IMG/VR virus record: IMGVR_UViG_2724679236_000017
From: a virus
Lineage: Duplodnaviria > Heunggongvirae > Uroviricota > Caudoviricetes
Length of the DNA stretch: 8,847 nucleotides
Strand: one strand, 5' to 3'
Shown: one piece after another, positions 7,506 through 8,847 of the stretch
Numbering within the stretch: the stretch's first letter is position 1
Layout: the number at the start of each line of letters is the position of its first letter
Notes under the pieces: generated by a model
What the model was told of the DNA's origin: nothing
Databases searched by the model: none
Seen by the model: only the letters and a program-made list of their open reading frames with translations
Made by a program: the position numbers and the translations under genes

Positions 7506-8309
7506 ATGGATGTTAATGAATTTCCACCGGGAGTAATCGAGCATCTTGGCTGGTATGTCTACCGCCTGATTGACCCGAGAGATGGTAGTACGTTCTACGT
7601 AGGGAAAGGGAAAGGTAATCGTGTCTTTGCCCATATGCGCGGTGAGGTTGCTGCAGTGGATGATGATGAGTTACTGAGTAACAAACTCAAACAACTTCGG
7701 GAGATCAGATTAGCTGGTCTTGAAGTTATCCATGTTATACATCGGCACGGTATAGCTGAAGAAAAGACGGCTTACGAAGTTGAAGCAGCACTCATAGACG
7801 CCTATCCCGGCTTGACTAACATCATGAACGGTGCTGGCAGTAACGAGTTCGGTGCTGCACACATCAAAGAACTAATCGCCACGTACCAACCTGAAACAAT
7901 TACGTTCCAACATAAAACCCTAATGATATCGGTTAACAGGAGCTCAAAGGATATTGACCTCTATGATGCTGTACGTTTTAGCTGGCGTGTCAGCCTTGAA
8001 CGCGCTCGTAAGGCAGAGGTCATACTGGCGACAGTAAGAGGAATTGTGAGGGGCGTATATATCGCAGATGAGTGGCTCAAGTCTACCCGTGAGAATTTCC
8101 CAGAGATCCCCTCATGGGATGCGGATGATGAATTTGAAGCCACTCAAAGTTCCCGCTTTGGGTTCCGGGGTAGGGCTGCACCTCCTGAGATTACACAGCT
8201 TTATTTAGGTAAGAAGCTCCCTGATGAGCTCAGAAAGAAAGGTGCTATGTCTCCTGTGAGATATTCTCCCGGATTTGATTTCGGAATGGAACTAGATTTT
8301 AGATCGTAG
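7506..8309 (+). CDS. GIY-YIG nuclease-domain protein with uncharacterised C-terminal domain
   Basis: The track ORF starts at 7476, but the ATG at 7506 has AGGTG Shine-Dalgarno 7 nt upstream and lies downstream of the predicted transcription start. The N-terminus carries GWYVYRL...[10 protein letters not shown], matching the GIY-X(10-11)-YIG pattern with the following Arg. Downstream Glu (AYEVEAAL) and Asn (GLTN) sit where the catalytic Glu/Asn fall in GIY-YIG folds. The C-terminal ~160 aa are unrecognised. Confidence 0.8.
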
Positions 8310-8325
8310 CCAATATACGGCAGTA

Positions 8326-8847
8326 ATGAATATTTCGGGGATCGTGTTTGCTGCGGTCATGGTTACCATTAGTGTTCGCGTAGCAATGGAGATTGCCTAC
8401 TTATGCGTGGCCAGACAGAGTGATGTACTTTCATTGCAGAAAGACCAGCTGTTCGATTCCGGGATCTACATTCGTCAGGGAAAAACCGGCGTTAAGCAAA
8501 TCAAAGCCTGGTCGCCTCGTCTGCAGAAAGCGATAGCTCTGGCTCGTTCTCTGCCATTAAAAACGGGAATCAGTAGCCTGTTTGTGATTCATCAAACTAC
8601 CGGTGGCAAGTATACCCGTGATGGTTTTAACTCTCGTTGGCGTGATGTCAAAGCGGCAGCACAGGAAAAATATCCTCATCTGCAAATAGACTTCACATTT
8701 CATGATCTGAAAGCAAAAGGTATCTCTGATCTGGAAGGCAGCCTGGAAGAGAAGCAAGCAATTTCCGGGCATAAGAACCCACGACAGACAGCTGCCTATG
8801 ACCGAAAAGTTAAAGTAGTGCCCGTAGTTGGTGGCCAGAGAAAATGA
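8326..8847 (+). CDS. lambda-family tyrosine recombinase/integrase, C-terminal catalytic-domain fragment (5'-truncated, probable pseudogene or remnant)
   Basis: 173-aa ORF aligning by eye to the catalytic half of lambda Int: VRVAMEIA...ARQSDVL (Arg box), YIRQGKTGVK, FHDLKAKG (HxLR-like box) and GHKNPRQTAAYDRK (His and catalytic Tyr). The frame is closed upstream by TAG at 8293-8295, so the ~180-aa arm- and core-binding N-terminal domains are absent. No convincing Shine-Dalgarno. Confidence 0.75.
   Translation: MNISGIVFAAVMVTISVRVAMEIAYLCVARQSDVLSLQKDQLFDSGIYIRQGKTGVKQIKAWSPRLQKAIALARSLPLKTGISSLFVIHQTTGGKYTRDGFNSRWRDVKAAAQEKYPHLQIDFTFHDLKAKGISDLEGSLEEKQAISGHKNPRQTAAYDRKVKVVPVVGGQRK

Follow-up and report, generated by a model that had tools for sequence, protein, structure and literature searches.

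An intact CMoRE/PD-T4-3 gene beside an integrase remnant, probably left by an internal deletion, in a leuZ lambdoid prophage

What brought a GIY-YIG nuclease gene and the broken end of an integrase gene side by side in a prophage? The question is raised by positions 7506-8847 of a stretch of 8,847 nucleotides of caudoviricete DNA (IMG/VR record IMGVR_UViG_2724679236_000017; the whole stretch is called the window here), in which an open reading frame (ORF) with a GIY-YIG domain is followed by an ORF that holds only the catalytic part of an integrase. An initial annotation, made from the letters of the window, had offered two explanations for the nuclease gene, namely a free-standing homing-type nuclease whose insertion truncated the integrase gene (int) or a defence nuclease that was acquired together with the block. 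In an Escherichia coli lineage, a lambdoid prophage is located at the leuZ tRNA-Leu gene, and the window is its int-proximal end. We consider it very probable that the GIY-YIG gene is an intact copy of the defence gene CMoRE/PD-T4-3 and that the int half next to it was left by an internal deletion of about 15.7 kb, by which the leuZ prophage was grounded.

The CMoRE gene and the deletion junction

The GIY-YIG gene lies on the plus strand in an ORF that extends from 7476 to 8309 and is closed by the TAG codon at 8307-8309, as was seen in both the ORF table and the raw sequence. Translation probably starts at the ATG at 7506, because the profiles, the crystallised proteins and the gene callers all begin there; the in-frame ATG at 7476 would lengthen the protein by 10 residues. 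The gene (7506..8309, 267 codons plus stop) was assigned to CMoRE/PD-T4-3 by PADLOC, by comparison with PDB entry 9U7U, by Pfam and by its key residues. In Pfam the only match of the ORF is LEM-3_GIY-YIG (E 7.9e-13). The PADLOC model PD-T4-3 (PDLC04031) is matched end to end (profile positions 1-254 of 256, E 4.7e-137), and the matches to the PDB entries 9U7U (E 1.9e-163) and 9U75 (E 1.9e-151) span all 257 crystallised residues (1-257), which are residues 6-262 of the chain in 9U7U. By inspection, the window protein and the crystallised CMoRE are approximately 93% identical. CMoRE was characterised structurally and biochemically in 2026, and the window gene is thus a member of an already known family.

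CMoRE, discovered in E. coli ECOR68 under the name PD-T4-3, is a single-gene type IV restriction system. The enzyme binds and cleaves DNA with 5-hydroxymethylcytosine (5hmC) or glucosyl-5hmC at the consensus CN11/N9G with 2-nucleotide 3' overhangs, guards against T2, T4 and T6 by direct defence and not by abortive infection, and has an acidic lid loop that restrains it on normal DNA (PMC12923530). The three-tyrosine GIYxY-YIG motif defined in the same study is present in the window protein together with the catalytic arginine (G15-W-Y17-V-Y19 ... F30-Y31-V-G33, R39). The initial annotation had made its reading depend on the catalytic residues of the domain, and on proper alignment Y17, Y19, Y31 and R39 are all in place. 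The autoinhibitory loop is represented by the four consecutive acidic residues D52-D53-D54-E55, the dimer-interface residues V92 and L96 are present, and residues 126-257, the C-terminal modification-sensing domain, align without gaps to 9U7U and 9U75 and include Y127 of the sensor pocket. Since every residue singled out in PMC12923530 is present, the gene was counted as an intact CMoRE. The acidic loop (window 7659-7670) varies in length by allele, with DDDE here and DDDDE in strain TUM13936.

Comparison with the crystallised proteins and with the TUM13936 allele delimits a C-terminal extension of 10 codons (8277..8306, plus strand), which is missing in the crystallised APEC O1 and O157 proteins and present in the E24377A/TUM13936 allele group; the TUM13936 allele is 98% identical to that of the window. 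The window allele is presumably active against phages with hydroxymethylated cytosine, as its identity of approximately 93% to the tested enzymes leads us to expect cleavage of 5hmC and glucosyl-5hmC DNA and restriction of T-even phages. The same gene is found in an unrelated prophage context adjoining ssrA in APEC O1. CMoRE is a mobile accessory cassette that was already in place before the deletion, and the second explanation of the initial annotation, a defence nuclease acquired with the block, proved to be the right one.

The two sides of the break have different counterparts among 5,426 complete E. coli genomes, which served as the megablast reference. Window positions 7329-8371 match the CMoRE cassette at 96.1% in genomes that include E24377A, SE11 and TUM13936. 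Positions 8373-8847 match the 3' end of the integrase gene in 444 genomes with up to 100% identity, and in 433 of these the match covers 80% or more of the query. Both the CMoRE cassette and the integrase gene are found in TUM13936, in a lambdoid prophage at leuZ that appears to be complete (locus L015 in our set). TUM13936 was taken as the parent-like reference in preference to E24377A, whose sister prophage has the same order of CMoRE and HNH endonuclease genes but is located at serU and encodes a different HDLK integrase. Positions 7329-8371 correspond to L015 18001-19045 (96.1%) and positions 8373-8847 to L015 34749-35223 (98.1%), and 15,703 bp are missing from the window relative to TUM13936. 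In the gene order of this intact leuZ prophage, CMoRE (L015 18177-18983) is followed by an HNH endonuclease gene, a hypothetical gene, LprI-family and ORF6N genes and several small genes, then by the genes for a DnaB-type helicase, RepO, YdaT, Cro and a CI-like repressor, then by an exonuclease-family gene, Gp157 and, directly before the integrase gene, DUF4224. The integrase gene (L015 34207-35223) is followed by tRNA-Leu.

In the intact relative, 15,703 bp separate this same cassette from this same int, and the arrangement in the window therefore points to a simple internal deletion of the prophage and not to an insertion of CMoRE into int. The N-terminal domains of the integrase, which the initial annotation had described as replaced by, or deleted up to, the GIY-YIG module, would accordingly have been deleted; the replacement can be dropped. 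The comparison with prophages that have an intact int, which had been suggested as a check, places the junction at position 8372 in a three-way alignment, the left parent extending to 8371 and the right parent beginning at 8373, with a microhomology of at most about 3 nucleotides (TGT). This is 63 nucleotides past the CMoRE stop codon and inside a small downstream ORF. The two genes are thus adjacent, as had been stated, although the break does not lie exactly at the GIY-YIG gene, and integrase DNA begins at 8373 and not at 8293 or 8326. The deletion presumably arose by illegitimate recombination, since the two sides share little or no homology where they meet.

The integrase remnant and the prophage setting

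The second plus-strand ORF (8326..8847, 173 codons) holds FTFHDLKAKGISD, and its frame is closed upstream by the TAG at 8293-8295; this codon, the GIY-YIG stop at 8307-8309 and the motif FHDLKAKG are all as the initial annotation had given them. The ORF is a chimera of 16 codons of an unrelated small ORF and integrase residues 182-338. Its integrase part, the 3' 475 nucleotides of the gene (8373..8847, plus strand), is 100% identical at the nucleotide level to int of E. coli EC28 (WP_001531780.1, 338 residues) and runs from the third base of codon 181 through codons 182-338 to the stop codon. It encodes most of the catalytic domain, with R195 (8413-8415), K218/K222, H291, K294 (AAA, 8710-8712), H314 and Y323 (8797-8799). 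The first 16 residues (MNISGIVFAAVMVTIS) are not of integrase origin. Alignment with the intact relatives shows that they derive, together with the ATG, from the start (8326..8371, plus strand; 15 1/3 codons) of a hydrophobic ORF of 20 codons (MNISGIVFAAVMVTIISVLN), which lies unannotated between CMoRE and the gene of the 411-residue HNH endonuclease in these relatives (L015 19000-19062).

Integrase residues 1-181 are absent, and with them the arm-binding and core-binding domains; PF22022 is matched in full-length relatives and not in the window, and Phage_integrase (PF00589) matches the downstream ORF only at profile positions 22-167 of 172. Relative to lambda Int, the catalytic domain of the remnant is also short of approximately its first 20 residues. 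A tblastn search with the full integrase traced residues 1-168 nowhere in the window, by which an alternative start or an upstream exon restoring a full integrase was ruled out. The truncation to the catalytic part is thus as initially described, with residues 182-338 of 338 remaining and no N-terminal piece in the window. The full-length WP_001531780.1 gene is preceded by an xis-like DUF4224 gene and followed by tRNA-Leu, tRNA-Cys, tRNA-Gly, pgsA and uvrC. Without arm-binding and core-binding domains and without an Xis-like partner, the remnant is presumably inactive for site-specific recombination by itself. The best PHROG match of the remnant is phrog_14425 (profile length 161, residues 21-167, window 8386-8826, E 1.9e-30) and not the general integrase PHROG; that this family tops the list suggests that ORFs for C-terminal integrase halves recur in annotated phage genomes.

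The sequence beyond position 8847 was inspected in a 60-kb NCBI contig (L005), as the initial annotation had advised in looking for an attachment site or tRNA gene. A tRNA-Leu(taa) gene lies 130 nucleotides past the stop codon of the remnant, followed by tRNA-Cys, tRNA-Gly, pgsA, uvrC, uvrY and sdiA, and the same tRNA target lies at this distance from the integrase gene in the intact relatives. The best matches of every window segment are leuZ prophages. At the other end, the window begins with a 5' fragment of the antiterminator gene Q (1..171, minus strand; 56 codons), in which 5 nucleotides are deleted at approximately positions 4-5 through loss of one CGGTC unit of a tandem pentamer (L006 1-720 versus L004 2470-3190); intact Q of related leuZ prophages has 223 residues. 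The frameshifted Q is a second, independent sign of decay in this lineage. Together with the loss of xis, repressor and replication genes, it supports the view that the element is defective and fixed, and the cryptic prophage postulated from the truncated int is in this sense borne out.

Alternative explanations

Could the nuclease itself have broken the integrase gene? Free-standing GIY-YIG homing genes exist in phages, and the GIY-YIG gene physically adjoins the break, as would be expected if a homing endonuclease had inserted into int, or cleaved beside it, and replaced its 5' half. We nevertheless see practically no chance for this explanation. The protein is CMoRE, a modification-dependent enzyme whose C-terminal domain binds 5hmC and is no site-specific homing module; the cassette and 62 nucleotides of normal downstream DNA are collinear with intact prophages in which int is 15.7 kb off; the N-terminal half of int is not found on the other side of the nuclease gene; and the same gene is carried in unrelated prophage surroundings, as beside ssrA in APEC O1. 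A homing origin of the truncation, the first proposal of the initial annotation, is contradicted by these observations and by the junction 63 nucleotides past the stop codon, and was discarded on the arrangement in TUM13936. A chimeric mis-assembly, or recombination between two co-resident prophages, was also considered, as relatives with CMoRE are found at serU (E24377A) as well as at leuZ and the junction is missing from all complete genomes searched. However, the identical 173-residue chimeric ORF with the same neighbours is present on seven contigs from NCBI (GCA_001514845.1), Logan and ENA gut metagenomes, which were located only by exact-protein look-up; these contigs are independent, differing in sample and assembler, and the junction is thus no artefact of assembly. 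All window segments best match leuZ prophages, so that a deletion within one prophage is the simplest account. We regard mis-assembly or a two-prophage origin as very unlikely.

The other two alternatives concern the integrase. The initial annotation had placed the lysine of HDLK at the second conserved arginine of the active site and, together with the truncation, had taken it as a sign of inactivation. The position was correct, as H and K of HDLK fall on H308 and R311 when the full-length relative is aligned to lambda Int structures with HMMER. Tyrosine recombinases hardly ever lack this arginine (Arg II of the R-H-R-Y tetrad), and a lineage that was dead already before the deletion would be conceivable on this ground. 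Yet, of the 120 full-length homologues closest in sequence (from many genera, 62-99% identity), 119 have HDLK and one has HDQK, and among representatives of 50%-identity clusters with at least 280 residues (32-64% identity to the query) 89 carry H-x-x-K and 23 H-x-x-R, the arginine mostly in the more distant ones. The lysine is kept throughout the clade down to approximately 35-40% identity, with arginine in sister lineages. FHDLKAKG is found in the integrases of Pectobacterium phage ZF40, whose record derives from an induced lysogen, of Salmonella phage ST64B and of the serU prophage of E24377A; an HDLK integrase adjoining tRNA-Leu is carried by prophages of hundreds of complete E. coli genomes, and the four of these integrases that were inspected lie in prophages that look complete or are largely complete. 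Natural alignments contain a few replacements by lysine at the Arg-II position, and the Cre variant R292K, altered at the equivalent position, recombines in vivo and in vitro (Gibb et al., PMC2943603); an explicit description of an HDLK clade was not found in the literature searched, and this general statement and Cre R292K are its sole literature support. Since the lysine is conserved in a clade that includes integrases of intact prophages and phages, and since Cre R292K is active, we take it as a conserved clade feature under selection and as a normal active-site residue without evidence of inactivation. A dead integrase lineage thus appears extremely improbable. That the chimeric ORF is a working gene, for a catalytic-only recombinase or topoisomerase or for a dominant-negative factor, would be in line with its open frame from ATG 8326 to the native stop codon, with the retention of R195, K218/K222, H291, K294, H314 and Y323, with its identity on the seven contigs and with the match of residues 21-167 to phrog_14425 (approximately 161 residues, E 1.9e-30). 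We give this possibility little credence: the start codon and 16 residues come from an unrelated small ORF by an accidental in-frame fusion, a convincing ribosome-binding sequence is not evident upstream of 8326, and the arm-binding and core-binding domains and some 20 initial residues of the catalytic domain are missing. The 100% nucleotide identity to intact alleles points to a recent deletion, and for this reason the ORF carries no signal of selection.

A grounding of the CMoRE-carrying prophage by an internal deletion remains the explanation that we prefer, and several points weigh against it. The junction was unmatched in the 5,426 complete E. coli genomes and, as an exact 35-nucleotide search, in the GTDB species representatives; the deleted lineage is known solely from draft and metagenome contigs, with the remainder of the prophage outside them. 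The left parent is only 96% identical, and what is given here for the parental sequence, the junction microhomology and the deletion length are estimates. The CMoRE allele has a tail of 10 residues that is foreign to the crystallised proteins, and its activity is predicted. Finally, expression of the chimeric ORF is possible, it keeps every catalytic residue, and it is matched by a family of proteins of approximately 161 residues, phrog_14425.

Proposed history, neighbouring features and known systems

The history of the locus can be modelled as follows. The accessory (nin-region) block carries CMoRE/PD-T4-3 as an intact single-gene defence system, in which the N-terminal GIYxY-YIG nuclease domain would cleave DNA, the C-terminal domain would sense 5-hydroxymethyl- or glucosyl-hydroxymethyl-cytosine and the acidic loop would keep the enzyme off ordinary host DNA; restriction of T-even-type phages would be the expected outcome. 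One deletion of approximately 15.7 kb by illegitimate recombination would then have joined the DNA 63 nucleotides past the CMoRE stop to int codon 181. It would have taken the HNH and other accessory genes, the replication, cro/repressor, recombination and xis-like DUF4224 genes and int codons 1-180, and with these the arm-binding and core-binding half of Int, whereas the catalytic fragment would have been fused by chance and in frame to the start of the small ORF. As the int fragment alone presumably cannot carry out site-specific recombination, the prophage would have been grounded with its defence cargo kept. It is very unlikely that this deletion was domestication rather than neutral decay and that the in-frame ORF with a complete Int catalytic core immediately after CMoRE, if expressed, interferes with lysogeny of leuZ phages. 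In that case the genes for induction, replication and excision would have been shed and the defence block (CMoRE and neighbours) retained, and an expressed fragment could bind or nick leuZ attachment-site DNA or poison the integrase tetramers of incoming phages.

The most interesting side observation is a palindromic element at the cassette boundaries. An imperfect palindrome of 66 nucleotides (7329..7394; hairpin dG -33 to -43 kcal/mol, z -5.4 to -7.8) marks the left boundary of the CMoRE cassette, where the similarity to E24377A and TUM13936 starts, and further copies lie in the intergenic gaps between accessory cassettes at 4336-4363, 5204-5275 and 6103-6174; the TUM13936 prophage has copies at L015 15097-15163, 16296-16353 and 17991-18064. 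In each gap between accessory cassettes the element of about 66 nucleotides consists of two inverted 28-nucleotide units (GTCCGCT...AGCGGAC) and folds as a single long hairpin, with dG from -27 to -43 kcal/mol and z from -3.4 to -7.8. Mosaic breakpoints fall on two of the copies, at 4359, where the similarity to ST131-type leuZ prophages ends, and at 7329, where that to the CMoRE cassette begins. Of the 5,426 E. coli genomes, 656 have related copies in intergenic positions, and another such copy separates two hypothetical genes in the gap between the tail-fibre and sheath genes of the 33.8-kb Escherichia phage 899. The palindrome has no match in Rfam. It may be a bidirectional terminator or a boundary sequence for cassette exchange.

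Other genes share the accessory block with CMoRE. A gene for an ImmA/IrrE (Peptidase_M78) metalloprotease (2983-3471, plus strand) matches the PADLOC capP (E 2.4e-25) and RmrA models, and the gene of a 201-residue protein (phrog_5346; 3481-4086, plus strand) starts 10 nucleotides after it; the two may be a regulatory or defence pair. Positions 4360-7328 hold three cassettes, encoding a membrane-like protein of 125 residues (minus strand), a DUF6650 protein and a protein of 251 residues (minus strand). In megablast this block is without a counterpart in the complete E. coli genomes that match best, in which matches end at 4359 and restart at 7329. Rfam models had no match anywhere in the window at E<=1. 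Counts in a promoter and terminator scan of 7000-8847 were not above those of shuffled sequence, and no promoter is claimed.

Both components of the locus are of known kinds and the grounding of prophages by internal deletion is commonplace, and the finding is real but ordinary. It adds a further example of a grounded prophage that retains a defence gene, and its importance lies mainly in annotation: a GIY-YIG gene beside a broken integrase gene should not be read as homing before intact relatives have been checked, and HDLK, which is normal in a large clade of enterobacterial integrases, should not be scored as inactivating by pipelines for prophage integrity.

Among known systems, the closest to the remnant are the heterobivalent lambda-family integrases of the HDLK clade, such as E. 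coli WP_001531780.1, Sb28 of Salmonella phage ST64B and gp02 of Pectobacterium phage ZF40. The remnant equals residues 182-338 of WP_001531780.1 and has the same catalytic motifs, including the lysine at the Arg-II position, but it lacks residues 1-181, begins with 16 foreign residues and has lost its xis-like partner. With the free-standing GIY-YIG homing endonucleases I-TevI and the Seg proteins of T4, CMoRE shares only the catalytic fold. Its C-terminal domain is a sensor of modified cytosine and not a sequence-specific DNA-binding module, and it has no relationship to a target gene; its flanks are conserved in relatives, where int is uninterrupted and, at full length, 15.7 kb away, so that the nuclease neither interrupts nor abuts it. 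DLP12, Rac and Qin of E. coli K-12 are defective lambdoid prophages, and the window prophage resembles them as an internally deleted lambdoid element that is fixed by its attachment site, has kept nin-region (YbcO/DUF1367-type) and accessory genes and bears inactivating mutations in late-gene regulators. It differs from them in its location at leuZ, in the integrase gene itself being cut by the deletion and in the retention of a characterised defence gene. With CMoRE/PD-T4-3, finally, the window gene has in common the two-domain single-gene layout, the key residues, its carriage by a prophage and the identity of approximately 93%; it is set apart by the C-terminal tail of 10 residues and by its place in a leuZ lambdoid prophage, within the accessory block of the nin region.

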